DNA of 64,000 nt from a virus (IMGVR_UViG_3300008108_000098); one strand, 5' to 3'; positions 12,425-40,334 are shown, counted from the stretch's first letter. Notes: generated from the letters alone by a model not told the origin. Numbers and translations: made by a program.

Positions 12425-12454
12425 AAAAATTCACCAAAAGGTGAATTTTAATTT

Positions 12455-12631: not shown

Positions 12632-12721
12632 AATAATTTTTTTATAAATATTTTGTTTATTACTTTTTATTCGGTATATTTTAAATATAAAAAAATAAGC
12701 AACAAAAATCAATAGTAATAA

Positions 12722-17444: not shown

Positions 17445-19247
17445 ATGCAAGAACTTTTGACTCAAAAATTTCAGTATGCGGTCATAATTCCATATAAAGA
17501 TTATTGTAATATTTTAGACGAACCCGTTTTTAAAAATTTTAACGAAGATGAATACCTTTTTTCAAAAAGTCGACAGTTCCAAGTGGCGTTACCCCCACCA
17601 ACTAAAAAAAACATATCTTATTTTAACAAAGGGACAGAAAACGAAAAAGATATTAAAGTCAAACTAATAAACCCATTAAAAAGTGAGTTTTACACCACAA
17701 ATGATAGACAAATAAAGAGACACTTTGGGAGACCTTTTAGTGAAATATCAATCCATACGATTGAAAGAAAAATAGTAAAAAGAGGAGATAAGATAACCAT
17801 CAAAACATATAGAGGTCAAAAAATACGATCTGTTAATCACAAATTCTTTAGAAGGTTTTATACCAGCATATCAATCTCTATTAATATTAAAACGGGTAAT
17901 TTTATTATAACTAAATCTTCTAAGACAGGTAAGACCAGAAGTAGTACTTTCAAAACGAATTGTTTTAACCATTTAACAGAAAATTTTCTTGATCCAATGT
18001 TCTCAATAGGACTACACAGTTTAAGAGAAAAGGAGAAATCAAGATATAAAGTTGGTAAAATGTTTGAGAAACAATTTGACGATAAAGTTTTCATAACAGA
18101 ACTTGAAAAAGTATTAGGTGATCAAAGAGGAACACATAAGTGGGATAAGAAAAATTTTTATAATTCAGTTTTAAATTTATTTATTGATAAGAAAAAAATT
18201 AAAATACCAAACGGAAATTACAAATACTGGATCGAAAACTTTTATCCAACTGAAAAATATCTTAAAAAAAATGATAGAAAATTATTCGCATCTGTGTTAG
18301 ATATGATTGGTATTAAATCAAAAGTGACAGTAAAAATACTTCATGATAATCCTGAAATTGATTTACATGGTTTATATGTTATATGTAGATTATTTGGTAA
18401 TGATTATCAGAAATATGTTGGTAATATAAAAAGTGTGATTTTAACAAACTCATTAAGAGATTCATCCTCACATTTAAATTGTCAAAATAAACATTCAATA
18501 TTAAATGACACCATTAAAAATAGGATTTTTGACTTATCAACATCAGAAAAAGATTGTTTATTAAAATTAATAAATTCAACCAAAATAGGTGAGGATACTT
18601 TAATACAACATAATAAAATTAGTCTTCTAATGGATCATGTAAATATGATTCAAAAATTAAGACCGTTTGACCCTAACATTAAATTCAATGCAAGAAACAT
18701 GACGGAATTTCAAGACGAGCATAGAGAGTTTTCCAAAATGATTTCTGCAATTAGAAAGGGATGGGTCTTAGAATACAAATACGATGAAAGATTATTAAAA
18801 GAATTACAGGTTCCAATCAATAGTCATTATTTTCTCGATGAAAATGAAACTGAAGCGGCGATGGAAATAATATATCCTAAAGTACTAACAAGAGAGGAAG
18901 AATATGCCGAAGAGGGATCTTTCATGCATCACTGTGTGGCGAGTTATTCTGATAAAGATACATCAATGATAATTTCATTAAGAACCGAATCACATGAGAA
19001 TAGGGTAACTTGTGAATTTGAAATCCAAACAGGTAAGTGTATACAAACAAGACATTTTTGTAATGGAGTACCCCCGAAAATGTTTGATGAAGCAATTCTT
19101 ATTGTAAAAGAAAAGGTAATTAGGAATGCTAAATGGGGTACATTAAATTGGAAAGAAAAAATTAAAGTACCGGTGAAAGTTAATGGTAAAAGTATAGACA
19201 TTGAATTATTAAATCCAACCAGAAATGTTTTTGATATAATGTTTTAA
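17445..19247 (+). CDS. PcfJ-like protein
   Basis: C-terminus GSFMHHCVASYSDKDTSMIISLR. Central region paralogous to 19294..20688. TATATTTG -7 box at 17416-17423. Confidence 0.5.
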   Translation: MQELLTQKFQYAVIIPYKDYCNILDEPVFKNFNEDEYLFSKSRQFQVALPPPTKKNISYFNKGTENEKDIKVKLINPLKSEFYTTNDRQIKRHFGRPFSEISIHTIERKIVKRGDKITIKTYRGQKIRSVNHKFFRRFYTSISISINIKTGNFIITKSSKTGKTRSSTFKTNCFNHLTENFLDPMFSIGLHSLREKEKSRYKVGKMFEKQFDDKVFITELEKVLGDQRGTHKWDKKNFYNSVLNLFIDKKKIKIPNGNYKYWIENFYPTEKYLKKNDRKLFASVLDMIGIKSKVTVKILHDNPEIDLHGLYVICRLFGNDYQKYVGNIKSVILTNSLRDSSSHLNCQNKHSILNDTIKNRIFDLSTSEKDCLLKLINSTKIGEDTLIQHNKISLLMDHVNMIQKLRPFDPNIKFNARNMTEFQDEHREFSKMISAIRKGWVLEYKYDERLLKELQVPINSHYFLDENETEAAMEIIYPKVLTREEEYAEEGSFMHHCVASYSDKDTSMIISLRTESHENRVTCEFEIQTGKCIQTRHFCNGVPPKMFDEAILIVKEKVIRNAKWGTLNWKEKIKVPVKVNGKSIDIELLNPTRNVFDIMF

Positions 19248-19293
19248 TTAATTTAAACTACACATTTAAAATCCATCCATATATATTTTATGG

Positions 19294-20688
19294 ATGGATT
19301 TATTAATTAGGCACGAACAAGAAAAAAAAGATAAGAAGGGTACAGGAGTATCTATTTGTAAATTATATCTGTACTCGAATGATACAAACATACAATTCAA
19401 TTCAATGTTTGAATTAGACTATCATAGATATGGGTCCAAGAAACATATAACATTTGAACATTCATTTAATATTGATATAAAAAGTGGTGATCTTAAAACA
19501 TCATATAGAATTTTTAATGACGGATTAACCGATGATAAGTTATTTAGAAATTGTTATTTAGAAAAGTTAAATGACTTTAAATTATTTTTTGATTTAACAG
19601 AGAATGGTTTTTTACGTGGAGAAAAAAGAAATGGATTTTGGGGTGTAAAATACTATAAAGCAATTAATTCAGTGATCACTAAAACATATAACATTTTAAA
19701 AACTAATTTCATAAGTGATTATTATTTACAAAAAGATTACATAAATAAACCTGTGTTAAATTCTCTATATGATTTAATTGTGGATTTTCATTTAGATAGA
19801 AAAAAAATTAAATCACATGATAATGTCTACCATAACATACAATATGATTATCCCAAAAAGAAATATCTAATTGAGAATGATAACAAGTTTTTACCGGCAG
19901 TTCTTGATCAATATGGAATCAAATCAAAATATTTAATTTCCGAATTAAACAAACAAATTGATAGACCAATTTATATATCTACACTTAACTACATTTGTAA
20001 ATTATTCGGTGACAACTATCTTGATTATATAAAGAAATTTGATTGGGGGTTACATTGTTATGAATTACCATCAAATAGAAAAATTCACACGTTAAAAAAT
20101 GAATCAGAAAAAAGTTGTATGGTGAGTTTAATTAATAAATGGGAGAAAGACACACTTAGGACTGACTCGTTAGTTTATAACATAAATAAAATATTATCAA
20201 CAAGAGATCTATTAGAATCAAGAAATGTTAATTTGAAATTTAAAGCAAAGAACGATGCCGAATTCGAAAACCTAATGGAGACTTGGTCAGGTATCAAATT
20301 ACATTTTTCAAGAGGATTTAAAGTTAAATACAATTTTCCTGAATCATTTATTAAAGACATTGAAAGTCAAATAAAAATTGAAGACGATGTATATGAAGTT
20401 AAATTACTCACAAGCGAGGAAGATTTTAGAGTCGAGGGATTTGTTATGAAAAATTGTATGAGTAAACAATTTCCACACGGATCAATTTACATTTATGTCG
20501 CGGTCCAACATAAAAGAAAAAGAATAAATTTACAATATAGAAAAGGTAAACTTGTACAATCTTATGGAAAGGCAAATACACCAGTGACAGAAGATTTCGA
20601 GAACGCCATAGAAATATTAAGTAAAAGGTTTTATAATTATATGGATCTCGAATGGAACAAAGAAAAATATGACTTCCTAACCAATTGA
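19294..20688 (+). CDS. PcfJ-like protein, paralog
   Basis: Motifs GIKSKYLISELN...ICKLFGDNY and GFVMKNCMSKQF. Confidence 0.5.
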   Translation: MDLLIRHEQEKKDKKGTGVSICKLYLYSNDTNIQFNSMFELDYHRYGSKKHITFEHSFNIDIKSGDLKTSYRIFNDGLTDDKLFRNCYLEKLNDFKLFFDLTENGFLRGEKRNGFWGVKYYKAINSVITKTYNILKTNFISDYYLQKDYINKPVLNSLYDLIVDFHLDRKKIKSHDNVYHNIQYDYPKKKYLIENDNKFLPAVLDQYGIKSKYLISELNKQIDRPIYISTLNYICKLFGDNYLDYIKKFDWGLHCYELPSNRKIHTLKNESEKSCMVSLINKWEKDTLRTDSLVYNINKILSTRDLLESRNVNLKFKAKNDAEFENLMETWSGIKLHFSRGFKVKYNFPESFIKDIESQIKIEDDVYEVKLLTSEEDFRVEGFVMKNCMSKQFPHGSIYIYVAVQHKRKRINLQYRKGKLVQSYGKANTPVTEDFENAIEILSKRFYNYMDLEWNKEKYDFLTN

Positions 20689-20772
20689 TAGTCAATAAGT
20701 TATAAGATTATTATTGTACAATTTTTTATTTTCGAATTTATTTTCTATATTAGATATAAGTTATCAAACATC

Positions 20773-21054
20773 ATGGCAAAAAGTAAAAGACCAACAATAT
20801 TTGATATGGTGGACATATTATACAATTACCACCATGATTTATCAATTTCACTATACCCAAAAGGAACGGGTATTATGATTGATAGAACCATAACAAAAAT
20901 TGCATGTATTGCTTCAATCGAACACTGTGATCGTCAAATTAATACATTAAAGGAAAACAAAACAAAACCATCATATTCACCAAATAGATTTACGGATGAG
21001 TTAGTATATTGGATATCTGTAAAAGAAATTTTAAAAAACAAAATGTTATCATAA
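20773..21054 (+). CDS. hypothetical protein
   Basis: 93-aa ORF. Confidence 0.35.
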   Translation: MAKSKRPTIFDMVDILYNYHHDLSISLYPKGTGIMIDRTITKIACIASIEHCDRQINTLKENKTKPSYSPNRFTDELVYWISVKEILKNKMLS

Positions 21055-21220
21055 TGCAACCTAAAGAATCAAATTCAAAAACACATTTTTACATTAGTTT
21101 AGTTAAATCAGGATTTAGATTTGGTGCTGGGTTTACTTTAATTTTTGGTAATTTAGTATCTGCCGGTGCTTTGTTGATTATTGCTGAAACACTTGGAATT
21201 GCTGAAGAAATATTTTAAAT

Positions 21221-21529
21221 ATGAATTTTTATTTATTACAATCATTTATCAAAAAAATTAAAATGAAAACATTTAAAGATTTGGAATTTGAAAGTATGGT
21301 TTCCCCATTAATGAAAGGAAAAAAAACAAGAGTACATTTTAAAAATGGATACGGAGCCTCAGTTGTTTGTCATGACTTTTCTTACGGAGGTAAAGATGGT
21401 TTATATGAATTAGCGGTTTTGTTTGATAATGAACTTCATTATGATAATCCTGTTGCAAACGGTGATGTGAGAGGATATCTGACAGAAGAAGAAGTAACGG
21501 AATTATTAATTCAAATACAAAATTTATAA
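21221..21529 (+). CDS. hypothetical protein
   Basis: 102-aa ORF. Confidence 0.4.
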   Translation: MNFYLLQSFIKKIKMKTFKDLEFESMVSPLMKGKKTRVHFKNGYGASVVCHDFSYGGKDGLYELAVLFDNELHYDNPVANGDVRGYLTEEEVTELLIQIQNL

Positions 21530-21531
21530 AC

Positions 21532-21798
21532 ATGGATAAAATTACAGAAAAAACATTAAGAATTTTAATTGTTGTGTTTGGACTATTGTTTTGTTTTACT
21601 GCGATTATGTGGAGTAAAAAGGAACAAGAAGTAAAAATTCAAACAGTTACTATTGAAATTTTAAATAAAAAAGTAGATAGTTTAGGAGGTGAAATGTTTA
21701 TTAAAGACATTCAAATAGGATCCTATGAAATTATGTGGGGAATTTTAGAAGAAATAAACAAACCTTTGGCAGATTCAATAAACAATCAAGTTGAGTAG
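21532..21798 (+). CDS. small membrane protein
   Basis: Predicted N-terminal TM helix. Confidence 0.4.
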   Translation: MDKITEKTLRILIVVFGLLFCFTAIMWSKKEQEVKIQTVTIEILNKKVDSLGGEMFIKDIQIGSYEIMWGILEEINKPLADSINNQVE

Positions 21799-21800
21799 AA

Positions 21801-22100
21801 ATGGATTCAAATTATAATTTAACTAACAAATATGTTTCAATAAAAACGTCGACACTTGTAACGTTATCAGAACTTTTCATAGTTCAAACATTAGATGGTC
21901 CCATAACTTTAGAAGTTGAAATAAATGCAGATATGGAAAACATACCTGAAAGATATCGAGAAGTATTCTTAAATGTACTAACCTCAAAATATGCAAATCA
22001 GGTATCTTTTGGTGATAATCCCTTTTCAGAATGTAAACCTATTGTTAAAAGAAAGTGGTGGCAATTTTGGAAATCTAAATATTTTATGAGAAATCTTTAA
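21801..22100 (+). CDS. hypothetical protein
   Basis: 99-aa ORF. Confidence 0.4.
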   Translation: MDSNYNLTNKYVSIKTSTLVTLSELFIVQTLDGPITLEVEINADMENIPERYREVFLNVLTSKYANQVSFGDNPFSECKPIVKRKWWQFWKSKYFMRNL

Positions 22101-22236
22101 TTATGTTTTATATAGGCATCATATTCATTATAACTTCATTATGGATTGCGTATGAAATTTGGAGAGCACCATTGATGGAAGAAACTGAAGACGGTAAATT
22201 AATCACAAAAAGACCAACAAAAAAATTATCAGACCT

Positions 22237-22479
22237 ATGGCGAAAGCGATCTTAGAATATGATTTGAATGATTTTGATGACAAACAGGCCCATCTCCGTG
22301 CTGTTAAATCTTTTGATATGGCCGGTGCATTATGGGATATTACCCATAATACTAAAAAGAATTTAGAATGGTCTATGGAAGGAAAAGAAATGGATAAATA
22401 TGATGCTTTGGAAATGGTGTTTGATAAGATTTTTGAGATCCTTGAGGAACATGGAATAAAAACTGACGAATTATTTTAA
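22237..22479 (+). CDS. hypothetical acidic protein
   Basis: 80-aa ORF. Confidence 0.4.
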   Translation: MAKAILEYDLNDFDDKQAHLRAVKSFDMAGALWDITHNTKKNLEWSMEGKEMDKYDALEMVFDKIFEILEEHGIKTDELF

Positions 22480-22495
22480 TAAAATATTTATAATT

Positions 22496-22681
22496 ATGAT
22501 AGAATTTTTCAAAAAAAATCAAAAAAATATAACTATGGGAGGTGCAATTGTTCTCCTACTCATTTGTTATTTTCAACAAAAAGAATTGTCACGTCTCAGA
22601 AAGGAAGTACATTCTGTAAATGAGATAAAAACAGATAATAAGAGTTTAGACTCACTTTTGAATAAGGTGGAATTGAAATGA
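22496..22681 (+). CDS. small membrane protein
   Basis: TM helix. ATGA overlap with the IscA gene. Confidence 0.35.
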   Translation: MIEFFKKNQKNITMGGAIVLLLICYFQQKELSRLRKEVHSVNEIKTDNKSLDSLLNKVELK

Positions 22682-23010
22682 TTACTATTAGTGAAAGTGC
22701 ATTAAAACATTTGAAGGATCTTATAAAAGACGAAGGTATTGATATCCAAACTCATTTTTTAAGGGTCGGGGTAAAAGGTGGTGGTTGTAGTGGATTGTCA
22801 TATATTATGGATTTTGATGATAATAAAACCGACATGGATGAAGTAGTGGAAGTTGATGATCAATTAAAAGTGGTGATAGATAAAAAATCAGTTCTTTATT
22901 TGTTTGGTACTGAACTTCAATATTCCTCAGGATTAAATGGAAAAGGTTTTCAATGGGTAAACCCAAATGCCTCTCGAACCTGCGGATGTGGTGAAAGTTT
23001 CGCAGTATAA
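22678..23010 (+). CDS. A-type Fe-S cluster carrier (IscA/HesB family)
   Basis: Near full-length match to IscA: GGGCSGLSY ... NPNA ... CGCGESF. Confidence 0.85.
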   Translation: MITISESALKHLKDLIKDEGIDIQTHFLRVGVKGGGCSGLSYIMDFDDNKTDMDEVVEVDDQLKVVIDKKSVLYLFGTELQYSSGLNGKGFQWVNPNASRTCGCGESFAV

Positions 23011-23064
23011 TTTTTTTTATTACAAAATTTTTCTTATTTTTTTAAAAAACTAAATAGAATTACT

Positions 23065-23343
23065 ATGCCAGAATTTACAACAGAAATTGATATTGACCCA
23101 AGTGAATTTATTGATTTGTGCTCTCGTAAAGAAAAAGAGAGATTAATCGAAATTCTTATTGAGGATGGTCATATCCAACCAGATCAAACAACATTAAATG
23201 GTGAAAAAGTTCGCAAACAAAATATCAACGACAAGATATTTTTTGAGAGTTTAGAAAAACTATCCAAATGTCGTGACTTATTAACTCTTGAAGAAGAAAA
23301 TTTTATAAACAATCTTGCAAACAAATTTAAATATCTTAGATAA
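23065..23343 (+). CDS. hypothetical protein
   Basis: 92-aa ORF. Confidence 0.4.
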   Translation: MPEFTTEIDIDPSEFIDLCSRKEKERLIEILIEDGHIQPDQTTLNGEKVRKQNINDKIFFESLEKLSKCRDLLTLEEENFINNLANKFKYLR

Positions 23344-24103
23344 GATGTTCAACAAGATATATGTAAATGGTGGGAGTCAATGTATTGCCGCGGGATTCAT
23401 ATGGAATAACGTCAAAGATGTCTATAAAGAAAATGGAGTGGTTATAAATAATCATTTAGAATTTTCATATCCATACATATTATCAGAAAAATTGAATGTT
23501 GAATTAGTAAATGAGGGATCACCAGGTGGTTCGATTTCAAGAATGATAAGAAAAACCTATGATTATATTTTTAATAATGACGTTTCAAATACATTATTTA
23601 TTTTGGAAGTTCCACCAGGTTGGAGGGAAGAATATTTTTCATTGGAGTTGAATCGTTATGTTAATATGACCATAGGAAACATTTTATCTGCCGATGATGA
23701 AACTGATACGGCTTGTGGTCATAGTGGGAAAGATTTACATAAGATACATAAAAACATAACAAATTATTTTTATAATTTTATTGACGACAAAGTTGAATTA
23801 GAAAAAAATATGTTTCATTTATTAGGTTTGTTGTCTTATTTAAAATTGAATAATATAAAATATTTGATAATTGATACGGGTGATTTTCATACGTATCTTT
23901 ATAGAAGAAAACAACCATTAAATTATAATTTTGTTTGGTTTGATGTGGAACCAATGCCAATGTGGGATTGGATAAATAAAAACAATTTAAAGATTGTAAA
24001 CGAAACAAATGGTTTATCAAGAGATGAACATATGGGGATTGAAGGTAACAAATTAGTAGCTGAAAAACTTTTTAAAATAATAAGTAATGAAAATTTCAAA
24101 TGA
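23315..24103 (+). CDS. SGNH-like hydrolase family paralog
   Basis: N-terminus KIYVNGGSQC ...; C-terminus RDEHMGIEGN. Confidence 0.45.
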   Translation: MQTNLNILDKMFNKIYVNGGSQCIAAGFIWNNVKDVYKENGVVINNHLEFSYPYILSEKLNVELVNEGSPGGSISRMIRKTYDYIFNNDVSNTLFILEVPPGWREEYFSLELNRYVNMTIGNILSADDETDTACGHSGKDLHKIHKNITNYFYNFIDDKVELEKNMFHLLGLLSYLKLNNIKYLIIDTGDFHTYLYRRKQPLNYNFVWFDVEPMPMWDWINKNNLKIVNETNGLSRDEHMGIEGNKLVAEKLFKIISNENFK

Positions 24104-24776
24104 TCTTGTTGAGGGTGTTGTTGAGGAAGTTCTACCTAAAATATTTTGTGTATTTATTGATGACAGTTACCAAAGGTCAATGTTGTTTTGTAAATACCAA
24201 GAATTTTATGAGTCACCCTTTAAAGAAATAAGAGGGAAAACATTTACATTGGAACAATATATGTCATTGTATAGACAAAAGAATAACGAACAGGTTTTTA
24301 CATATCCAAAAGATTGGTCAGGTTTTAACATACCATCAAATATAATTCAAAAAGGTATGTCGGCCTTTTCAAAACGTGGGTGGGGACCCTATGACGAAAT
24401 CATGAGTGATATTTGGTATTCATGTGAAAACTATCCACTAAGATTTGAAAAACCAAGAACAAAATGGTACTTAATTGGATCAAGTAAGTGTGATCTCGAT
24501 ACCATGAAACATGAAATTGCTCACGGTTTATATTATACAAATAAAGAATATAAAAAAAATTGTGATAAATTATTAGATAGAATAAAAGCGAGAGATTATA
24601 AGTTTTTAAAATTATGTCTAATAGAAATGGGATATGCTGATGACGATAAAATTATATCTGACGAGATACAGGCTTTTATGTCAACAGGACTTTATAGTAA
24701 ATTAAAAACAGAAGAAACACAAAAATATACTAAAAAATTTATAGAAAACTTTAAAAATTTTTACAATGAAAAATAA
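24087..24776 (+). CDS. putative zinc metallopeptidase-like protein (HExxH)
   Basis: Motif MKHEIAHGLYY. Confidence 0.4.
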   Translation: MKISNDLVEGVVEEVLPKIFCVFIDDSYQRSMLFCKYQEFYESPFKEIRGKTFTLEQYMSLYRQKNNEQVFTYPKDWSGFNIPSNIIQKGMSAFSKRGWGPYDEIMSDIWYSCENYPLRFEKPRTKWYLIGSSKCDLDTMKHEIAHGLYYTNKEYKKNCDKLLDRIKARDYKFLKLCLIEMGYADDDKIISDEIQAFMSTGLYSKLKTEETQKYTKKFIENFKNFYNEK

Positions 24777-24902
24777 ATCAACCCTTGAAAAAATTATATT
24801 ATTTTTTGTATTCTTATTCGGTATGTATCTTTTATTTACCGGATTTAGAATGATTTTTTTTATGATAAGTGAAATATTCAAATAATATTTTATCTTTACT
24901 TA

Positions 24903-25430
24903 ATGAGACGAAAGGTTATTTTCATAGATGTAGACGGACCATTGGCATGGGGTACATGGGGAAACGGTAGAGTTACACTTAACGAAGGGACTTCTCATTT
25001 GTTTACAATACCATATCCTTGGGTTGAGGACGATTGCCAAGCCCTCCAAAAGATTTGCAATGAAACAAATGCAAGTTTGGTGGTTAGTTCAGATTGGAGA
25101 AAACATTTTAGTTGGATTCAATTGAAACGTATTTTTCAATACTATGGAATTACCGCACCTATTGTGGATATAACTACACATCAGGATCTATGGAATAAAT
25201 TGAGTAGACCGTCAATTGAGTGGGAAAGAGCCTCGGAAATTTGTAAGTGGGTTAAAGATAACAAAATCAGTAATTGGATTTCAATTGATGATATGAAGTT
25301 AGATCAACAATACAAGTGGATGAGACCGAGAGTCCCAATGTGGAGACACGTTCAAGTAGATGGTGATTGGGGAACAGGTGGTAGATTGAGGGACAAAATT
25401 GAAGAATGTATTTTTAAATTAAACCGTTAG
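24903..25430 (+). CDS. HAD-like hydrolase
   Basis: Motifs FIDVDGPL ... VVSSDWR. Confidence 0.5.
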   Translation: MRRKVIFIDVDGPLAWGTWGNGRVTLNEGTSHLFTIPYPWVEDDCQALQKICNETNASLVVSSDWRKHFSWIQLKRIFQYYGITAPIVDITTHQDLWNKLSRPSIEWERASEICKWVKDNKISNWISIDDMKLDQQYKWMRPRVPMWRHVQVDGDWGTGGRLRDKIEECIFKLNR

Positions 25431-25677
25431 TTATGAATTACTTAGTTGCCATTTTGATAACAATTATAATAGTTACACCAATTTCGTGGTTGTGGGTTAA
25501 AGGTATTGATAACATGAAAAAAAATCATCCTGATTATAAAGGCAATGATCTGTTTAATTGGGATGAAGATGACGATTCAAAGAATGTGTAGATAGTACAC
25601 GATGATTCGTAATATTTTAAAAAACCTTTGATATTATAAAATAATTTATATAAATTAGGTGTATAAAATTTACAATC

Positions 25678-26022
25678 ATGGGAAATCAACATGTACCACT
25701 TTCAATCAATGAAGATGGATTAGTAACATCAGTTGGAAAACAACAATTATCAGATGACGATTACGAAGTTTGTATCATCTGCGGAGGAAAAACAAACGTA
25801 CTAAAAACTACACACATCGATTATCGATATGGTTATGTAGAAGGTGCTGGTCAATGTTGTAGAGAATGTTACAACAAGTCGAGTGATAATTATAGTGACA
25901 GGATAATGAAACTTAGAACGACTTTAATTACCATATCGGCAGAAGATATTCAAAACACTCCAAACGATATGGAATTAGGTGCTCTTGTTAGAAACAAATA
26001 TTGGGATAGTTTAGAAAGATGA
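25678..26022 (+). CDS. Cys-rich zinc-finger protein
   Basis: Motifs CIICGG ... CCRECYNK. Confidence 0.45.
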   Translation: MGNQHVPLSINEDGLVTSVGKQQLSDDDYEVCIICGGKTNVLKTTHIDYRYGYVEGAGQCCRECYNKSSDNYSDRIMKLRTTLITISAEDIQNTPNDMELGALVRNKYWDSLER

Positions 26023-26483: not shown

Positions 26484-26521
26484 CGAAGTATTTATATACA
26501 TATAAGTAAATTCGGAGTAAA

Positions 26522-27688
26522 ATGAAAGTAATTAAAGTTAAAAACCTAAAGAAGTTAGTCGAGGAAATTTCTTCCGATTATATGGAAATGGCCTATCAGG
26601 CCAAGGGAGTACAAAAAGCTAAAATTGACCCCAAAACAGGAGAAGAAATTATACCTAAGTATAAACCTTATTGGAAGGAGGGTAATGACACTCCAGTTCC
26701 TGATTATTGGATTATAAATAAAAATCAGGTTAAAGGTGAGGAGGTCTTGCTTGTTCCTTTAGATTGTTATGAATATGAACAATTCGTAAATGAAAATAGA
26801 GAATGGTTAGATCAAATTGGTGCTTTACATAATTTGAACCCGAGTTTAAATCCTTGTAAAAGAACAAAAGAACACCCAAGAAATAAAAAAGTTGGAACAA
26901 CATATGTTCCTTCAGGTGAAAAATACAGTTTACAGGAGAAATTAAAGAGAGATTTACATGATTTAGTTGAAAGATATTTGGGTAATGAGGAAGTATCTAA
27001 AAGATTGGAAAAATGTAGTATACCTGAAATCAAATCAAGGGACAGAAAACACTTGAATAGATACGGTAAAATGGATAATACATCAATTGAATATAACACA
27101 CACACTTTTAATTCATATACAAGTTCTAAACAATTTTTACAATTTGTAACTGCAAGAATTACAGGTAAACCTTTGGATCCACAATTTAAGTCCTATCACT
27201 TAGCAAGACAATTCAACGACATATATAGGAATTGGTCAGAAACAAAAAAGAATGATGTTCAGTATGTTGGAAAAACTGAGGCATACATGTTAGATAGATT
27301 TGGATTTGATCCTGATAACTTAGATGTAACAGTTAGAAGTGATTTCAGCATAAAAGGAGAAAACGATGCACAAAATAAAGTGTATAAATGGACAATAACT
27401 TTAACCACTAAATTTGGTAGAAAACTTAAAGAAGAATCCGCAATTGCTGGTAGAAAATTGAATCCTGACATTAACATTGTGATTCAAAAAGAGGCACAAT
27501 ATGAACTTGAAGAAAATGAAGTTTTCAATGAAATGAGAACCGTTTTAGATAAATTAGAAATCAAACAAGCACTTATTGAGGCATTAAGTGAACTCGCAGA
27601 TAAAATAATGACAGAAATTAAACCCGTCCAAGCCCTGAAATTGGCCAACGTCCAAAACTACGACATAACAAAAAAGAACGTCGAATAA
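26522..27688 (+). CDS. hypothetical protein (388 aa)
   Basis: Long ORF followed by an intrinsic terminator. Confidence 0.5.
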   Translation: MKVIKVKNLKKLVEEISSDYMEMAYQAKGVQKAKIDPKTGEEIIPKYKPYWKEGNDTPVPDYWIINKNQVKGEEVLLVPLDCYEYEQFVNENREWLDQIGALHNLNPSLNPCKRTKEHPRNKKVGTTYVPSGEKYSLQEKLKRDLHDLVERYLGNEEVSKRLEKCSIPEIKSRDRKHLNRYGKMDNTSIEYNTHTFNSYTSSKQFLQFVTARITGKPLDPQFKSYHLARQFNDIYRNWSETKKNDVQYVGKTEAYMLDRFGFDPDNLDVTVRSDFSIKGENDAQNKVYKWTITLTTKFGRKLKEESAIAGRKLNPDINIVIQKEAQYELEENEVFNEMRTVLDKLEIKQALIEALSELADKIMTEIKPVQALKLANVQNYDITKKNVE

Positions 27689-27692
27689 AGGA

Positions 27693-27720
27693 ATCCCCGA
27701 GAAATCGGGGATTTTTTTTT
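27693..27720 (+). terminator. intrinsic terminator: ATCCCCGA-GAAA-TCGGGGAT plus T9
   Basis: Perfect 8-bp GC stem with a T-run, seen directly. Confidence 0.8.
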
Positions 27721-27758
27721 GAAATATTTTGGGATATTCAAAATAATTTTTACATTTG
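27721..27758 (+). promoter_or_regulatory. class A promoter: GAAATATTTTGGGATATTCA element plus TACATTTG -7 box
   Basis: Matches the Bacteroidetes -33 TTTG / -7 TAnnTTTG architecture. Element recurs at 38790 and 41311. Confidence 0.55.
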
Positions 27759-27775
27759 TATAAACTTACTAACAA

Positions 27776-28276
27776 ATGGGTACAAATTATTACAGGATAC
27801 CCCCAAAAGGGGAAATGGAAGATAGAAAACGCGTTCTAATTCAACAAGTTACAGATTTAGAACTAACCCCTTCAAATATTCAAAGAGAGTTCAAAGTTGA
27901 AAAGTCATCATCATGGGACTATGAAAATCCTTGGGATGTTTTTCTTGAAGACACCAATATACATTTAGGTAAAAGAAGTGGGGGTTGGAAGTTTTGTTGG
28001 AATTTTCATAATAACAAATATTATTCTAACAAAGAACAATTACTTCGTTTCATTCGTACTGGTAGGGTTGTTGATGAGTATGGTGAAGAATGGAACGTTG
28101 AGGAATTTATAAGTATGTCACTTGAATGGAGTCAACCGAATGGATTAATTCTTAATGAAGAATATAGAAAAGATTTAATATCAAAAGGTAGTAAAATGTT
28201 TTGGTTGTATGATGAAAAACATGACGATTTAAATATTGATGGACTAAGGGTAAGTACATCAAATGCGTTTTCATAA
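27776..28276 (+). CDS. hypothetical protein
   Basis: 166-aa ORF; HLGKRSGGWKFCW motif not recognised. Confidence 0.5.
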   Translation: MGTNYYRIPPKGEMEDRKRVLIQQVTDLELTPSNIQREFKVEKSSSWDYENPWDVFLEDTNIHLGKRSGGWKFCWNFHNNKYYSNKEQLLRFIRTGRVVDEYGEEWNVEEFISMSLEWSQPNGLILNEEYRKDLISKGSKMFWLYDEKHDDLNIDGLRVSTSNAFS

Positions 28277-28342
28277 TTAAAAAAAAAAGAAAAACGCTGA
28301 AGTGGAAATCGAGGTGGATCCTCAAAACGGACAAATGAATTT

Positions 28343-28996
28343 ATGATAAAGTTAGATCGAAATATAAAAGTATGGATTACCTCCGATACACACTATTCAC
28401 ATAAAAATATATGTAGAGGTGTAACTAATTGGCGTATGCCAGATGGTTCAGTACCCGAAAAACAAACTCGTCCGTTTGATACAATTGAAAAAATGAACTC
28501 ATCAATTGTTGATAACATAAATGAAGTTGTCGGTCAAGACGATGTGTTAATACATTTGGGTGATTGGTCTTTTGGTGGATTTGAAAATATAGAGGAATTT
28601 CATAACAGATTAATTTGCAAGAATATACATTTAGTTCTTGGTAATCATGATCATCATATTGATAGGAACAGAGGAAATGTAAGAGACCTATTCAAAAGTG
28701 TAAGTTGGTTTGAACAATTTGAATTTATGGGTGAAACAATTGAATGTTGTCATTACCCAATATCAAGTTGGAATGGTCTTCGTAAAGGTCGTATTCATTT
28801 ACATGGACATTGCCATTTACCACATGATCAAAAAATAAGTAACGGTAGAAGAATGGATATTGGTATGGACGGCAATCCTGATTTTGCACCGTATAACTTG
28901 CACGAAGTTATTAAGATGTTGAAAAAAAGAGAAATAGGTAGTGAGATGGGTCCTTTAGATCATCACTTAGATGATATTGTGGGAATTGTTGGTTAA
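28343..28996 (+). CDS. calcineurin-like metallophosphoesterase
   Basis: Motifs ITSDTHYSH ... GDWSFGG ... LVLGNHDHH. Confidence 0.75.
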   Translation: MIKLDRNIKVWITSDTHYSHKNICRGVTNWRMPDGSVPEKQTRPFDTIEKMNSSIVDNINEVVGQDDVLIHLGDWSFGGFENIEEFHNRLICKNIHLVLGNHDHHIDRNRGNVRDLFKSVSWFEQFEFMGETIECCHYPISSWNGLRKGRIHLHGHCHLPHDQKISNGRRMDIGMDGNPDFAPYNLHEVIKMLKKREIGSEMGPLDHHLDDIVGIVG

Positions 28997-29035
28997 GTAT
29001 TTTTTTATTTCAATTATTTTTTCTATATTTTTTAT

Positions 29036-29278
29036 ATGACTTTGGAAGAAATAATTGAAAGATATCCCGATACAGAAATTTTGAAGGCAGATGGATTTGA
29101 TGATGCGGTTATTGGGATAGAAGAAAGATCTGGTCGATTGGTTTATGATGTTGATATGATGATTCACATTCTTATAAAAGACGAAGAGATGAGTGAGGAA
29201 GATGCTATTGAATATCTTGATTATAATGTGATCGGGGCATATGTAGGAGAACAAACACCAATATACATAACAACATGA
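29036..29278 (+). CDS. small acidic protein
   Basis: 80-aa ORF. Confidence 0.4.
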   Translation: MTLEEIIERYPDTEILKADGFDDAVIGIEERSGRLVYDVDMMIHILIKDEEMSEEDAIEYLDYNVIGAYVGEQTPIYITT

Positions 29279-29305
29279 AGAAATTTATAAACTTTCTCAA
29301 ATTGG

Positions 29306-29800
29306 TTGAACATTACAGATTACTGTGTATGGAAAAATCAGGTTGGGGTAAAATCTAAAAATATGAATATTAAACAAGCACTTAAAAAGAAAAACAAACT
29401 CGTTGGGTTAATGACTGAAGAGTTTTACAAAGCAACTCAATATAATGTTGTTGATGAAGGTAATCCTCGTCCATATTCTGCAACTGAAGCTATTGGTAAA
29501 TGGATGCAATTATCAAATGAATTGATTGTTTTAAAAGCAAAAATCCATAAAGCAAATCAACCGGTTTATTATCAAATTTTTGAATTGTCGGAATTAAAAA
29601 GTCAGGTTAAACTTTTGAAATCACTAAACTGTACATCAGGTAAAGTTAGTGGAGGTAGATGGGGTGAAGGTGATCCTGTTGTGAAACATGCCGAAATCAA
29701 TGTAGTAGAAAAAGATCAAATGGTTAAAAATCTTGAATCAAGAATTGAACAGCTTCAAGATGAACTTGATCAATGGAATCATAATACACTAATTGATTAA
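29306..29800 (+). CDS. hypothetical protein
   Basis: 164-aa ORF with C-terminal coiled-coil-like segment. Confidence 0.45.
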   Translation: MNITDYCVWKNQVGVKSKNMNIKQALKKKNKLVGLMTEEFYKATQYNVVDEGNPRPYSATEAIGKWMQLSNELIVLKAKIHKANQPVYYQIFELSELKSQVKLLKSLNCTSGKVSGGRWGEGDPVVKHAEINVVEKDQMVKNLESRIEQLQDELDQWNHNTLID

Positions 29801-30026
29801 AAAATATTGGTTGGGGGATGAGGGACGATTTATAAATCAACAGAAATGGTTTCATACCATTTTGACAATCAATTCTATAAAGTCTGATAAAAAGATATCG
29901 TTAACGAATTCAAAAATTAACCAATCAAGATATCAACAGTTAAATGTCAAACTTTAAAATTCTATTAAGATTTATTTAATCAAAACTTTGAACCCAATCA
30001 TACTTTAACTTACTAAACTAAACACA

Positions 30027-30380
30027 ATGAACAATTTACTTAAAAAAATTTTTGATCGAAAAATCGTTAGTCCCGTTTTTGTTGGATTTGGTGGATTTGC
30101 AATATTCACATTTATTGTTTTTCCAGGATTAACCGTTGCAAATGGTGTATTGAATATTCTCTCATCACTTATTGGTATTTTTACTTTAGTTTATATTTTT
30201 TATTACATTGATGGTGATAAACTTTATAAATCTATTATTGAAATTGAGTCGGGTGAAACAGAATTAGATTATGTGAACCCTGATGAATTAAAACCAAAGA
30301 AAAAAAGAAACATTAAACAATTTCCTGAGGTTGAAAGTAAAGAACCCTTTGTAAAAACAAGAAAAAAATTAAAAAAATAA
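30027..30380 (+). CDS. membrane protein
   Basis: Two predicted TM helices and a Lys-rich tail. Confidence 0.45.
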   Translation: MNNLLKKIFDRKIVSPVFVGFGGFAIFTFIVFPGLTVANGVLNILSSLIGIFTLVYIFYYIDGDKLYKSIIEIESGETELDYVNPDELKPKKKRNIKQFPEVESKEPFVKTRKKLKK

Positions 30381-30582
30381 ATATGAAAAGATTTACAATT
30401 ACAGGTGTTAGAACTATAGATGAATATGTTACATATACCGTTGAAGCTGAAACCGAAGATGAGGCTATGGAAATAGTCGAGAACGGGGAAGTAGACGACA
30501 ATAATGATCATTGGCAACGGGAAACTTCTGGTGGTGAAGATTTTACCGTAACAAAAGTCGAAGATATAGAAAATTAAAAATT

Positions 30583-31527
30583 ATGGCAAAATTTAATAGG
30601 TACGACAATCGATGGGATAACCACGGTAATAAAAGGTCGGATGAAGAATTGGATCGAATGGAAAAAGAATACAATCAACAACAAAATATAATAAAACAAA
30701 AAATTATGAGAAACATTTTAATCGGGGTCGGAGTATTTTTTATATTAACTTTTTTATTTTTTTCTTGTGAAAGAATTGACGCAGGACACGTCGGAGTTAA
30801 GGTAAATCAATATGGTGATAACAAAGGTGTTAGTGATGTAGTAGAAGTAACGGGTATGGTATTTTATAACCCAATTACACATAGTATTTATGAGTTCCCA
30901 ACGTTTATTCAACACAAAGAATATACGGGAGATAATTCATTTGTGGTAAACTCCAAAGATGGTAGTGAATTTCATGTGGCACCTATCATCAATTATTCAG
31001 TACAAAGAGAGAAAGTTCCCGCAATCTTTTCGAAGTATCGTAGAAGTTTGGAACAGATTGAAGAAGGATTTTTAAAAACTGCGGTGTTTGATGCATTTAG
31101 ATTGGCAACCAACGTATACACAGCAGATGAATTGATTAGTAATAGAGAGAAATTCGAGATCGAAGTTCGTAAAATTTTAGAGTCACAATTAATGAAAGAA
31201 GGTTTTGTGGTTAATCAGTTTACATCTAATCTCGTTTATCCTGAAACATTTAAACAAGCAATCGAAGCCAAAAACAACGCAGTTCAAGCGGCATTAAGAG
31301 CTGAGAATGAAGTTAAAACTGCGGAGGCACAAGCGAAGATTAAAGTGGCAACTGCGGAAGGTAATGCTCAGGCAATGTTAACTTCAGCGAAAGCAGAGGC
31401 GGAGGCGAATCGATTGAAACAACAAACATTAACACCACTATTATTACAACTTGAATGGATTAATAAATGGGATGGTAAGTTACCAGTATATGGACAGTCA
31501 CCAATTCTCTATAAACCTGTAAATTAA
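30583..31527 (+). CDS. SPFH/band-7 (prohibitin/HflC-like) membrane protein
   Basis: TM helix, SPFH core and Ala/Glu-rich coiled-coil tail. Confidence 0.7.
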   Translation: MAKFNRYDNRWDNHGNKRSDEELDRMEKEYNQQQNIIKQKIMRNILIGVGVFFILTFLFFSCERIDAGHVGVKVNQYGDNKGVSDVVEVTGMVFYNPITHSIYEFPTFIQHKEYTGDNSFVVNSKDGSEFHVAPIINYSVQREKVPAIFSKYRRSLEQIEEGFLKTAVFDAFRLATNVYTADELISNREKFEIEVRKILESQLMKEGFVVNQFTSNLVYPETFKQAIEAKNNAVQAALRAENEVKTAEAQAKIKVATAEGNAQAMLTSAKAEAEANRLKQQTLTPLLLQLEWINKWDGKLPVYGQSPILYKPVN

Positions 31528-31532
31528 AATAT

Positions 31533-32111
31533 ATGGCAAAGTTCACAAAAAAATGGTTGAAAGATTTTGAAAAAAGGTACAAAGACGCCTTCAAATCAAT
31601 TAAGAGTTTAGAAGAAGAACATGCTGAAATGAGAGCGGATAATCCGGATGTTTATGAAATAAACGGTTTGTTTATGAACATCTCTCATTTAGAGTTTGAC
31701 AATTCATCTGATCTAACAATTTATCATAAAGAAAAATCAGATGAAAGTGATGAATATGTTGAAATTGGTGTAGATGGTAGTGAATTGGGTTCATTCGCTT
31801 TTAAAATTAAAAGTTTAAAAGAATTAAAAGAATTCAGAAATAAATTAATTGAAGCAATAGATAATTTTGAAAGACCGGTTGAGTTGGACAACACCATAGA
31901 TCCTGATGATTGTGAAGAGGAAGAGGGATGGGAAGACAATGAAGAAACGGAATATACAATTCAATGTAGTAGAACTTGTGTACAAAGTTGGACACATACT
32001 GTTATTGCAAAGACTACTTGTGAGGCAATAAGAAAGGCACAAGATGGTGAAGGTCATGATGAAAATGATGATTTTGATCAATATGGTGAAATAGATTATG
32101 AATCAATTTAA
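31533..32111 (+). CDS. acidic protein
   Basis: 192-aa ORF with Asp/Glu-rich C-terminus. Confidence 0.45.
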   Translation: MAKFTKKWLKDFEKRYKDAFKSIKSLEEEHAEMRADNPDVYEINGLFMNISHLEFDNSSDLTIYHKEKSDESDEYVEIGVDGSELGSFAFKIKSLKELKEFRNKLIEAIDNFERPVELDNTIDPDDCEEEEGWEDNEETEYTIQCSRTCVQSWTHTVIAKTTCEAIRKAQDGEGHDENDDFDQYGEIDYESI

Positions 32112-32113
32112 GT

Positions 32114-32653
32114 ATGAAATTTATTAAGACTGACATCGACGGATGTTACTTGATCACATTTAAGACGTTTCATGACGATAGAGGTTACTTTGGTGTTCCA
32201 TTCAATACTAATGACTTCAACGAAGGTGTTGGAAAGAAAGTTAATTTTGTTCAAGATAATATGTCCTATTCATATAAGAATGTGATTAGGGGACTACATT
32301 TTCAAAAAGGAGACTTTGAACAAGCTAAATTAGTTACATGTACATATGGTAGGGTTTATGATGTGGTAGTTGATATTAGAAAAGATTCGTATACATATGG
32401 AAACGTGGTTAAAGTTGAACTTGGCCTTGGATTAGAAAGACAACTCTTTATTCCAAGAGGATGTGCACACGGGTTTTCAGTATTAAGCGAGAAAGCTATT
32501 TTCCAATATAAAGTCGACAATATATATAATAAGGAGAGTGAAGGTGGAATCATATACAATGACAACGTTTTAAATATAAATTGGGGAGTAGAACGAAATA
32601 AAGAGATTGTTTCACCAAAAGACCTTGAATTACCCTCTTTTATTTCATTGTGA
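32114..32653 (+). CDS. dTDP-4-dehydrorhamnose 3,5-epimerase-like cupin (RmlC family)
   Basis: Motifs FHDDRGYF, IRGLHFQ, GRVYDVVVDIR, PRGCAHGF. Confidence 0.8.
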   Translation: MKFIKTDIDGCYLITFKTFHDDRGYFGVPFNTNDFNEGVGKKVNFVQDNMSYSYKNVIRGLHFQKGDFEQAKLVTCTYGRVYDVVVDIRKDSYTYGNVVKVELGLGLERQLFIPRGCAHGFSVLSEKAIFQYKVDNIYNKESEGGIIYNDNVLNINWGVERNKEIVSPKDLELPSFISL

Positions 32654-32947
32654 TATTTATATAAAAACGTCAAATTATGTCAAAGATCATTAAGTTAAAA
32701 CAGTCAGATATTGAAAATATTGTTGAGGATATTGTACAAAAGGAATTAGAAAAAATATCCGATGTATCCGAAACAGGAGATGTGTCATCCGCATCTGATG
32801 TTTTAATAGGAAAAGATGAAAAAACAGGTAAAATTGTTGTATTCAACAAAAACACAGGCACAGTTTTAGGTCAAAAATAACTAACCATATTTCAAATTGG
32901 TTTGGTTATGGTTTCGTATATTTCTTAATTTTTAATATATTTGTCTC

Positions 32948-33265
32948 ATGAGTTACATTATTGGGAATAAGTGTATATCTGTGTGCGACACAGCATGTGC
33001 AAAAGTTTGTCCTGTTGATTGTATAAACGGACCAATCGACATTCAAGGTATGGGATTGGAAATCAAATCAATGAGTAAGGAAGAAATTGATGGTAAACAA
33101 TTATTTATCAACCCAAACGATTGTATCGATTGTGGGGCGTGTGTACCTGAATGTCCCGTAGATGCGATATATTCTAACGAAAAAGAAGCAATAGATCTGG
33201 GTGATATTGAATCAGTTTATAAAAATTATAACTTTTACGGTCTCGAATATATCCAAAAAAAATAA
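32948..33265 (+). CDS. 2x[4Fe-4S]-type bacterial ferredoxin
   Basis: CxxCxxxCxxxCP and CxxCxxCxxxCP motifs. Leaderless-like TATATTTG box 4 nt before the ATG. Confidence 0.75.
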   Translation: MSYIIGNKCISVCDTACAKVCPVDCINGPIDIQGMGLEIKSMSKEEIDGKQLFINPNDCIDCGACVPECPVDAIYSNEKEAIDLGDIESVYKNYNFYGLEYIQKK

Positions 33266-33339
33266 AAAAATTTTTTTGATTTACGGATAATTCATTATTT
33301 TCGACTTCACATTTATTCTAAACCATAAAACCAAATTAC

Positions 33340-34245
33340 ATGTTGAAATTTAACAACGTATTGTCTTGTTTCGATGGAGCAAGTTGTGCTCAAATGGCAT
33401 TAAAAAGAGCAGGAATCAAGTACAAAAATTATTACGCAAGTGAAATTGAAGAATCGGCAATCACAGTTGCAGAACACAATTTCCCTAACACAATTAATTT
33501 AGGTGACATCAGAAACATCAAAGCAAAAGATCTACCAAAAATAGATATCATTTTTGCTGGTAGTCCTTGTACTGATTTAAGTATTGCGGGTGAAATGAAT
33601 GGAATGACAACAGAAGATGGTACAACTTTGACAACACTAAAATCATATCTCATTTGTAAAAAGAAGGGTGTTAAGTTTGTTGGTCAATCATATCTATTTT
33701 GGGAGTTTGTTAGATTGATCAAAGAGTTAAAACCAAAGTATTTCTTTTTAGAGAATACAAGAATGAGTAAAATCTATTTGTATATTATCACAAGAGAACT
33801 TGGTGTTGAACCGGTTTTAATTAACTCTTCAGTTCTATCCGCACAAAATCGTGAAAGATACTATTGGACAAATCTACCCGGATTCATACCTCCTGTTGAT
33901 AAAAATATCACATTAAATAAAATCATTCCTGGTGCGGTTTCTTGTGGAACAAGAGGCCGTAAATTGAAAGGTGACGATTTCTATACACAAGTATTCACAA
34001 AAAGAAATGATGGTAAAGCAAACTGTGTTGTAACAAGTCCCGGTTCAACAAACCAATATGTTAAAAACAACAAGGTTCATACGTATTCAATAGAACTCGC
34101 TGAAAAGTTACAAACTTGGCCCGTAGGTTATACCAATGTGAAGGGTGTTAGTAAAACAGAACGATACAGAATGATTGGAAATGGTTGGACCGTTGATGTT
34201 ATATCACACTTTTTAAGATGTGCAAACAAATTATTAAAAAAATAA
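33340..34245 (+). CDS. DNA (cytosine-5)-methyltransferase
   Basis: Motifs GSPCTDLS (PC motif), FLENT (ENV-like), QNRERYY (QxRxR). Confidence 0.75.
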   Translation: MLKFNNVLSCFDGASCAQMALKRAGIKYKNYYASEIEESAITVAEHNFPNTINLGDIRNIKAKDLPKIDIIFAGSPCTDLSIAGEMNGMTTEDGTTLTTLKSYLICKKKGVKFVGQSYLFWEFVRLIKELKPKYFFLENTRMSKIYLYIITRELGVEPVLINSSVLSAQNRERYYWTNLPGFIPPVDKNITLNKIIPGAVSCGTRGRKLKGDDFYTQVFTKRNDGKANCVVTSPGSTNQYVKNNKVHTYSIELAEKLQTWPVGYTNVKGVSKTERYRMIGNGWTVDVISHFLRCANKLLKK

Positions 34246-34251
34246 TTCAAG

Positions 34252-35184
34252 ATGTCAAGAGCAAAAAACTTAAGAGAAAATTCAGATAACAATTTGAATC
34301 TATATGAGTTCATTTCATTATTCACACCAGATAATAAATCAAAGTATGCTGAGTTATTATTAAAATTAATGAAAAAAACTCCTAATCTAAAATCTCATGT
34401 TGATGAGATTAGATATAGATTTAAAAATGAGTTTGGTGTAAATGAATCAAAATTAAATGATCTCAATGAGTTACATTTAATTATGTTTTATAGAATACTT
34501 GATACAACGTTTAATTTCAGTGATTTAAAATCTTTCCAAAAATTTTGTCAACTGAATGAGAGAAATTTAATAAATCAGAATGACCTTTCAAGGTATAGTA
34601 GTTTTGATGAAATAATTAATCAATTGAGTTTAGCTGAGATAAATGCAGAAACGAAAGATTTAGAAAAACAAGTCAAAATTATATTTGAAGATGATGAATG
34701 GATATTGGTTAGACCTTTAACATACCTATCATCAAAAAAATATGGTGCAAATACTAAGTGGTGTACAACTCAATACAACAACCCTGAATATTTTATAAAA
34801 TATTCAACTAAGGGAGTTTTGATATATTGTATCAATAAAAAGACCGGATACAAAGTTGCGTCATTCTATTCATTAGATCGTGAAAATCCTGAATTTTCAT
34901 TTTGGAATCAAAAAGATTCTCGTATAGATTCATTGGATACTGAGCTAACAGAAAGTCTAAAAAAGATTATTTTTACGGAATCTAAAGACATAAATGCAAA
35001 GACAAATAGATTTTTATTATCAGATGATGAGAGAATGAAAGAAGATCTGATTTTGGAGACTTTAAGAGAAAATGACGTGATGCTAAGACCAGTGGAAGCA
35101 ACAATGGATGTAAATGTGGAAGCTCCAATGAATGAAATTGCATCACCTGACATGGATATTCATGAACAAACAGAATTAAACTAA
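34252..35184 (+). CDS. PcfJ-like protein (third paralog)
   Basis: Motif KWCTTQYNNPEYFIKYSTKGVLIYCI. Confidence 0.4.
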   Translation: MSRAKNLRENSDNNLNLYEFISLFTPDNKSKYAELLLKLMKKTPNLKSHVDEIRYRFKNEFGVNESKLNDLNELHLIMFYRILDTTFNFSDLKSFQKFCQLNERNLINQNDLSRYSSFDEIINQLSLAEINAETKDLEKQVKIIFEDDEWILVRPLTYLSSKKYGANTKWCTTQYNNPEYFIKYSTKGVLIYCINKKTGYKVASFYSLDRENPEFSFWNQKDSRIDSLDTELTESLKKIIFTESKDINAKTNRFLLSDDERMKEDLILETLRENDVMLRPVEATMDVNVEAPMNEIASPDMDIHEQTELN

Positions 35185-35189
35185 ATAAT

Positions 35190-35561
35190 ATGGTAAGTCC
35201 TTATGTTTTTCCTGGTATTAAAGAATTACACAAATCAAATTGTAATTTCAAATTGAAGAGAAATGAATTTACACCACAAATTGTTATGGAGCTTGTGGCA
35301 AATAATTGTGGTTTAACAGTTAACGACATCGTTTCAAAAACAAGAAAGAGTATGATTGTTGATGCCAGATATATTTTTTGTGGAATTATGAAAAAATATT
35401 TTAACTATCCATACAAGAATATTGGTGATTTTGTTGGTCACAGGGATCACACTACTGCTATTCATGCAGTTAAGACCTTTCAAAATAGATATGATCTTGA
35501 GGATGGTTATAGAGAGTTAGTTGAATCAATCATTTACGATTTAAACATCAAATTTAAATAG
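35190..35561 (+). CDS. standalone DnaA domain IV (DnaA-box binding HTH) protein
   Basis: SKTRKSMIVDARYIFCGIMKKYF...IGDFVGHRDHTTAIHAVKTF matches the DnaA C-terminal signature. Confidence 0.7.
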   Translation: MVSPYVFPGIKELHKSNCNFKLKRNEFTPQIVMELVANNCGLTVNDIVSKTRKSMIVDARYIFCGIMKKYFNYPYKNIGDFVGHRDHTTAIHAVKTFQNRYDLEDGYRELVESIIYDLNIKFK

Positions 35562-39523: not shown

Positions 39524-39596
39524 GCGGGTGTGGTGCAATGGTTAGCATAGAAGTCTCCAAAACTTTTGATGGGAGTTCGAATCTCTCCACCCGTGC
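39524..39596 (+). tRNA. tRNA-Trp (anticodon CCA)
   Basis: Hand-folded cloverleaf. Loop CTCCAAA with U33; T-loop TTCGAAT; CCA not encoded. Confidence 0.8.
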
Positions 39597-39609
39597 ACAA
39601 AATAAAAAT

Positions 39610-39856: not shown

Positions 39857-39857
39857 A

Positions 39858-40283: not shown

Positions 40284-40334
40284 TTAATCAGTATATTTTG
40301 ATTTATAAAGAAAATTATTTATCTTTGTATATAT

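Follow-up and report, generated by a model that had tools for sequence, protein, structure and literature searches.

The viral sequence IMGVR_UViG_3300008108_000098 was analyzed over a stretch of 64,000 nucleotides (64 kb, hereafter the window), which has about 30% G+C and represents about 36% of an uncultured phage genome of about 179 kb. An initial annotation of the window had flagged five open reading frames (ORFs) and read them as three PcfJ-like paralogs, one of which would form a unit with an orphan C5-cytosine DNA methyltransferase (MTase) and with a standalone protein made up essentially of DnaA domain IV (DnaA-IV). All five ORFs were recovered, on the plus strand and with exactly the boundaries then assigned, within a tightly packed plus-strand block extending from about 12.7 to 42.5 kb:

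17445..19247, plus strand: ORF1, PcfJ-family protein 1, 600 amino acids; Pfam PF14284
19294..20688, plus strand: ORF2, PcfJ-family protein 2, 464 amino acids; divergent tandem paralog of ORF1
33340..34245, plus strand: C5-cytosine DNA methyltransferase, 301 amino acids; PF00145, TIGR00675, PADLOC
34252..35184, plus strand: ORF3, core protein of an unnamed, apparently viral family, 310 amino acids; not PF14284
35190..35561, plus strand: standalone DnaA domain IV protein, 123 amino acids; PF08299

These genes represent three independent features rather than one unit: a PcfJ pair, an inserted MTase, and a syntenic block of ORF3, the DnaA-IV gene and a further gene, p181. This explanation as a whole, including a DnaA-IV protein that would be directed at the host, is the one we consider probable. 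Most of the locus can be annotated in the ordinary way with known families, the uncharacterized ones being the standalone DnaA-IV family and the large ORF3 family.

The PcfJ pair

ORF1 belongs to the Pfam family PcfJ (PF14284), which it matches with 51.1 bits (cut-off 25) and E 1.7e-13 over residues 455-545. A beta-rich N-terminal domain and a helical middle precede the C-terminal PcfJ domain with its EG..MHHCVASY motif. The AlphaFold model of ORF1 (AF2; predicted local distance difference test, pLDDT, 78) matches BFVD entries named “PcfJ like protein” in Foldseek with E-values from 1e-5 to 1e-8, and PF14284 was found in all 481 homologs; a profile search against PDB sequences gave no match. 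ORF2 scores 20.8 bits with the same Pfam model, under its 25-bit cut-off. It is nevertheless, as judged from sequence similarity, clearly a true though divergent ORF1 homolog, because BLASTP aligns the two with E 3e-23 and 26% identity over 329 residues, the PcfJ region included. The two genes thus stand as adjacent paralogs, as first proposed. In 79 of 80 IMG/VR loci, which were retrieved with the ORF1 family, the ORF1 ortholog is directly followed by an ORF2 ortholog; it follows that the duplication is old and that each copy belongs to the core gene set of the clade.

In most of the 80 related loci, a thymidylate-synthase-like gene lies upstream of ORF1. Its counterpart in the window is:

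15401..16525, plus strand: thymidylate-synthase-like gene, 374 amino acids; Pfam Thymidylat_synt, E 7e-93; conserved upstream neighbor of the PcfJ pair

From position 15401 onward, the gene order is thus ThyA-like, DUF5672, PcfJ1 and PcfJ2. The thymidylate-synthase-like protein has roughly 100 residues more than the Pfam profile, which has about 266 positions; it may be either a true ThyA or an enzyme of the pyrimidine hydroxymethylase type serving DNA modification.

PcfJ-like genes are likewise found near thymidylate synthase, single-stranded DNA-binding protein (SSB) or exonuclease genes in Bacillus Herelleviridae, the thymidylate synthase being the neighbor in phages SWEP1, Kamfam and BCU4, and in a Streptococcus prophage a PcfJ-like gene adjoins a replication-initiation gene. 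This recurrent placement by thymidylate synthase, SSB and replication-initiator genes in unrelated phages suggests, by gene association alone, a role of the PcfJ family in DNA replication or nucleotide metabolism; a literature search for PcfJ returned nothing functional. The C-terminal EG..M.HC..SY domain links ORF1 and ORF2 to other PF14284 proteins such as PcfJ of pCF10 and those of Bacillus Herelleviridae. The two differ from these in being tandemly duplicated and in the loss of the HH of HHC from ORF2, and the third proposed copy, ORF3, is not a member.

ORF3 and its relation to PcfJ

ORF3 begins with a helical domain, continues with an alpha/beta domain that contains RPLT..SKKYG.NTKWCTT and ends in a disordered acidic tail. 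Its close homologs (n = 956, 54-68% identity) are found on contigs of up to about 335 kb, and the family forms at least 3773 clusters at 50% identity (E <= 0.001). One metagenomic member of 1844 amino acids contains five tandem copies of the core, and in the jumbo Salicola phage SCTP-2 (440 kb) a stretch of about 12 kb contains six paralogs, of which one is a fusion with DUF4116 repeats. When 185,579 bacterial and archaeal species, each represented by a single genome, were scanned with a pattern-limited search, only one weak match was returned, and a profile search against PDB sequences returned none. The family is very large, uncharacterized and apparently viral. Being the best-conserved gene of this region in the clade and forming paralog arrays in jumbo phages, ORF3 is well suited to structural and functional study. 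Its acidic C-terminal tail is highly variable in length among homologs and contains, in the window, a 24-nucleotide tandem duplication (35092-35139, copies 79% identical) encoding VEATMDVN and VEAPMNEI.

Membership of ORF3 in PF14284 was supported by no sequence or profile test. Pfam gave no PcfJ match, BLASTP found no similarity to ORF1 or ORF2, and no cross-matches occurred between the hidden Markov models (HMMs) of the ORF3 family and those of the ORF1 and ORF2 families. Applied to 41 diverse members of the ORF3 family, the Pfam PcfJ model touched one (E 0.16), and it matched none of five genes from the Salicola phage paralog cluster. Comparison of ORF3 with PcfJ by hhalign gave probabilities of 0.7-1.3% and E-values of 0.04-0.33, all non-significant, in four designs, which covered alignments restricted to the core, with column shuffling as a control, and profiles broadened by adding PcfJ proteins of Bacillus and Streptococcus and the Salicola paralogs. 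Of the three PcfJ-like paralogs of the initial annotation, ORF1 and ORF2 are upheld and ORF3 is not. The signature H/W-C...Y...G..IY by which the three had been grouped is composite in nature, with HHC and Y but not G..IY in ORF1, NC and GSIYIY in ORF2, and WC, Y and GVLIY in ORF3. Only [EY]-G-x5-C, preceded by LT, is common to all.

Although outside PF14284, ORF3 might still belong as a very remote relative to a broader PcfJ-like superfamily and share ancestry with ORF1 and ORF2, a possibility that deserves mention but that we hold to be doubtful. The spacing of [EY]-G-x5-C is identical in the three proteins, and ORF3 resembles the PcfJ domain in the predicted succession of secondary-structure elements (long helix, beta-hairpin, helix, aromatic-Cys, three strands, helix). 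With the broadened profiles, the top hhalign alignment is the motif alignment itself, pairing WlvvrPLT..KYGsnTKWCTt with ..EG..MhhCvasy and running collinearly through the next strands. In a Foldseek search of BFVD, the first two matches of ORF3 below its own family, M4M992 and A0A6J5LA76, are also found among the ORF1 matches, at ranks 8 and 1; for ORF3 they are marginal (E 0.045-0.053, probability 0.38-0.57). Against such an ancestry, the hhalign and Foldseek scores that would support it are all non-significant, and the significant BFVD matches of ORF3 (n = 18) and ORF1 (n = 10) have zero overlap. The near absence of Pfam PcfJ matches in the ORF3 family and their absence from the Salicola genes point the same way, and ORF3 lacks both HHC and VQxRGxxN, the hallmarks of PcfJ.

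The standalone DnaA domain IV protein

The 123-amino-acid protein matches Bac_DnaA_C (PF08299) with 64.5 bits (cut-off 31.5) over residues 30-95, corresponding to profile positions 2-67 of 69, and aligns to domain IV of E. coli DnaA (PDB 1J1V) with E 1.3e-7. As initially described, it is essentially only DnaA domain IV, to which a 29-residue N-terminal extension with SPYVFPGIK is joined. The full-length DnaA model TIGR00362 gives 61.3 bits against a cut-off of 343.9 and covers model positions 340-434 only, which places the protein outside the initiator family.

The residues of E. coli DnaA that contact the DnaA box are reportedly R399, P423, D433, H434, T435 and H439 in the structure of Fujikawa et al. 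2003 (PDB 1J1V). The E. coli residues correspond to the window protein as follows:

R399 to R52, K415 to K68, D433 to D86, H434 to H87, T435 to T88, H439 to H92: conserved
P423 to K76: not conserved

Among 55 distinct viral homologs, the equivalent of R399 is Arg in 52, that of R407 is Arg in all 55 and that of K415 is Lys or Arg in 48, these positions lying outside the search pattern. The D/H/T residues (55/55) and the equivalent of H439 (52/55) were part of that pattern.

Compared with domain IV of E. coli DnaA (residues 374-467, 1J1V), the phage protein shares the fold family by sequence, the basic-loop Arg and the RDHTT..H recognition helix, and differs by the absence of domains I-III, the SPYVFPGIK extension and the Lys at P423. 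The N-terminal motif of the family, [IL]SPY[VI][FY]PG[IL][KR], is not derived from DnaA and is also found in a 130-amino-acid homolog of unrelated phages of about 68 kb. The NCBIfam entry PRK06030, a 123-amino-acid “hypothetical protein” (E 0.0014), and the PHROG phrog_16091 (E 5.8e-4) likewise have a short N-terminus followed by a DnaA_C helix-turn-helix. Because the matches to both are weak, the window protein is placed in a subfamily of its own, which the N-terminal motif defines.

Many other viral contigs encode standalone DnaA-IV-like proteins, of 113-226 amino acids. DnaA-IV-like coding regions were also seen in 4-7 kb contigs from human feces labeled “Bacteriophage sp.” (MT837747, MT838540, MT839331 and MT838945), a size typical of microviruses, which suggests that such proteins are distributed over widely differing phage types. 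A literature search for a characterized phage standalone DnaA domain IV protein, or for a tested function of PRK06030 or phrog_16091, found none.

Predicted target of the DnaA domain IV protein

In the absence of the oligomerization, ATPase and helicase-loading domains, the protein would be expected to bind DnaA-box-like 9-mers as a monomer and to be incapable of initiating replication. It may occupy DnaA boxes at the host oriC or at DnaA-regulated promoters and thereby block or rewire host initiation during infection. A host-directed role of this kind, in which binding, target and effect are all predicted from sequence, is a serious candidate that we put forward tentatively. It is favored because unrelated phages have strictly kept a reading head of the host type and because no cluster of sites is visible on phage DNA.

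The initial annotation had also allowed for the protein marking a phage origin, for which searches with DnaA boxes gave no support. In the window, TTATCCACA with up to one mismatch occurs 33 times against 30.5 expected, and the relaxed consensus TTWTNCACA occurs 7 times against 15. No cluster of at least three relaxed boxes within 400 bp was found in 1.49 Mb of sequence comprising the window and the fetched loci. With neither box enrichment nor a cluster, no DnaA-box phage origin is therefore marked in the 64 kb, and the absent cluster is weak evidence against a target on phage DNA in the vicinity of these genes. Across the window and related loci, the relaxed consensus reaches 0.47-0.52 of expectation; this depletion was rejected as DnaA-related since the canonical box is at expectation.

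Several points weigh against the explanation favored here. The canonical box TTATCCACA is neither enriched nor avoided in the window and the non-redundant related loci (15 observed, 15.3 expected, ratio 0.98), so that phage DNA bears no selection footprint in either direction. The box scan of this phage covered the 64 kb of the window, about 36% of its genome. P423, a base contact in E. coli, is Lys in the window protein and variable in the family, and specificity may thus differ from TTATCCACA. The conserved N-terminal motif and the constant neighbor p181 hint at a partner-dependent function, which simple competition for boxes does not explain. The functional inference for PcfJ, for its part, is purely associative.

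Alternatively, the protein may act on the phage's own DNA, as an origin-binding protein or as a transcription factor at DnaA-box-like sites, possibly with partners recruited through SPYVFPGIK or p181. DnaA boxes are part of the origins of many plasmids and phages. Conservation of the N-terminal motif extends beyond the clade, p181 adjoins the gene in nearly all cases, even where gene order is reversed, and the scan covered only about 36% of the genome. We regard action on phage DNA as a serious rival, though rather unlikely: no box cluster was found in the 1.49 Mb, one-mismatch boxes are close to expectation and relaxed boxes below it, and strict retention of the RDHTT..H reading head across unrelated phage groups is easier to understand if the target is a fixed host sequence.

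Under a host-directed role, the family carrying the SPYVFPG motif, present in this clade of big phages and in unrelated smaller phages, is predicted to act as a non-initiating host-takeover decoy that would sit at oriC and across the DnaA regulon and switch off host initiation. This prediction is speculative and, as a complete account, on the unlikely side; a description of such a phage strategy was not found in the literature. If DnaA-IV did compete with host DnaA, it would represent a simple and widespread phage route to stopping host replication at initiation, and it could serve as a ready-made, minimal DnaA-box blocker.

Synteny of the methyltransferase and the DnaA-IV block

The MTase exceeds the cut-offs of Pfam DNA_methylase PF00145 (110.8 bits, cut-off 22) and TIGR00675 (102.1 bits, cut-off 100.65) and matches the PADLOC models MTase_II and oMTase (orphan). 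Two of the motifs first reported, PC (residues 76-77) and QxRxR (QNRER, residues 169-173), are found in the translation together with GNGW; the third, ENV, is in fact ENT (motif VI, E138-N139-T140), the Glu being kept. The gene upstream of the MTase marks the site of its insertion:

32948..33265, plus strand: 4Fe-4S ferredoxin, 105 amino acids; Pfam Fer4 families

The MTase is an orphan by the context of its adjoining genes, as initially stated, because neither the ferredoxin nor ORF3 has a nuclease or defense-system match. It resembles other orphan phage C5-MTases (PF00145, phrog_116, PADLOC oMTase) in motifs I, IV (PC), VIII (QNRER) and X (GNGW) and in having no cognate nuclease adjoining. 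It is unlike them in its short length (301 amino acids), in the ENT of motif VI, in the FDGAS of motif I and in about 20 extra residues between motifs IV and VI. Knowledge of the family suggests that it most likely methylates phage DNA, by which host restriction would be evaded.

In relatives, the ferredoxin gene directly adjoins ORF3, with no MTase at the junction in loci L001-L004, and in 79 related IMG/VR loci no gene within 4 kb of the ORF3 homolog is related to this MTase. The closest relative of the MTase in IMG/VR (53% identity) shares a contig with an ORF3 homolog, from which it is separated by about 50 kb. The MTase is present in all near-identical contigs of this phage. From the 79 loci, the ferredoxin-ORF3 junction and the distance of the nearest relative, the MTase can be recognized as a lineage-specific, recent insertion between the ferredoxin gene and ORF3, and the proposed unit is not conserved.

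That MTase, ORF3 and DnaA-IV would form one functional module, for instance for methylation-coupled control of DnaA-box occupancy, is accordingly very improbable and largely refuted by synteny. The three genes do lie on one strand with gaps of only 6 and 5 bases, but the whole 30-kb plus-strand block is packed equally tightly, and close spacing by itself does not make the genes of a phage genome a unit. As accessory genes, MTases are common and mobile. While this one lies beside ORF3 in none of the 79 related loci and its closest relative is far from ORF3, DnaA-IV is kept in 41 of them, and many other viral contigs carry DnaA-IV without ORF3 or an MTase. A different C5-MTase does lie about 0.8 kb downstream of the DnaA-IV homolog in the unrelated phages of about 68 kb; this second, independent proximity may be a coincidence. 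In that group (L276 3486-5662; also L277-L279 and L296), the MTase has 335 amino acids and the N-terminal motif of the 130-amino-acid homolog reads PY[IV][YF]PG. Comparison of synteny thus dissolved the module.

What the clade does conserve is a block that includes the gene following DnaA-IV:

35575..36120, plus strand: p181, protein of 181 amino acids; near-constant neighbor of the DnaA-IV gene

DnaA-IV is found downstream of ORF3 in 41 of the 79 ORF3-bearing loci, and these include nearly all the loci in which ORF3 has at least 47% identity. An ORF of about 77 amino acids usually separates the two in relatives and is missing in the window. p181 is present in 46 of the 79 loci and adjoins DnaA-IV even where the order is reversed (L046, L052-L056). 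ORF3, DnaA-IV and p181 are a syntenic block of the clade. p181 had no match in Pfam, PHROGs, NCBIfam, PADLOC or PDB sequences; it contains the pattern MMGHGSPGG ... IWCNADKF, which could be a His/Cys dyad.

Across the clade, DnaA-IV is an intact ORF of 121-142 amino acids with 33-68% identity. Because of these conserved intact ORFs, the N-terminal motif and the conserved residues, it is judged to be a functional, selected family. A decaying, functionless fragment of a captured host dnaA would explain why only the last DnaA domain is covered, but it is refuted by this conservation, by a family-specific N-terminal motif foreign to DnaA and by the invariance of the functional residues, and we give it almost no credence.

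Genome setting

Contigs encoding an ORF3 product of identical sequence come from many metagenome samples of JGI, Logan and NCBI (60 index blocks) and reach a length of 178,617 bp (JGI 3300057212 Ga0568938_000001); the samples behind the contigs of this phage are metagenomes from JGI, ENA and Logan. The clade to which the phage belongs is large, with contigs of up to about 335 kb; no close isolate phage at the DNA level was found among 50,697 records.

The genes surrounding the flagged ORFs have accessory or nucleotide-metabolism functions:

Surrounding genes: thymidylate-synthase-like, DUF5672, DenV-like glycosylase, HAD phosphatase, metallophosphoesterase, SPFH/Band 7 protein, RmlC, ferredoxin

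Scans of 31.5-38.2 kb for sigma-70 promoters and terminators were uninformative. Glycosyltransferase genes of the GT2 and GT4 families form a minus-strand block at window positions 4322-12721, ending at an AT-rich divergent intergenic region of 535 bp (12188-12721), where the cumulative GC skew has its minimum. No DnaA boxes were found in this candidate strand-switch or origin-like region. Four tRNA genes (Trp-CCA, Met-CAT, Asp-GTC and Ser-TGA) are clustered on the plus strand at 39524-40863.

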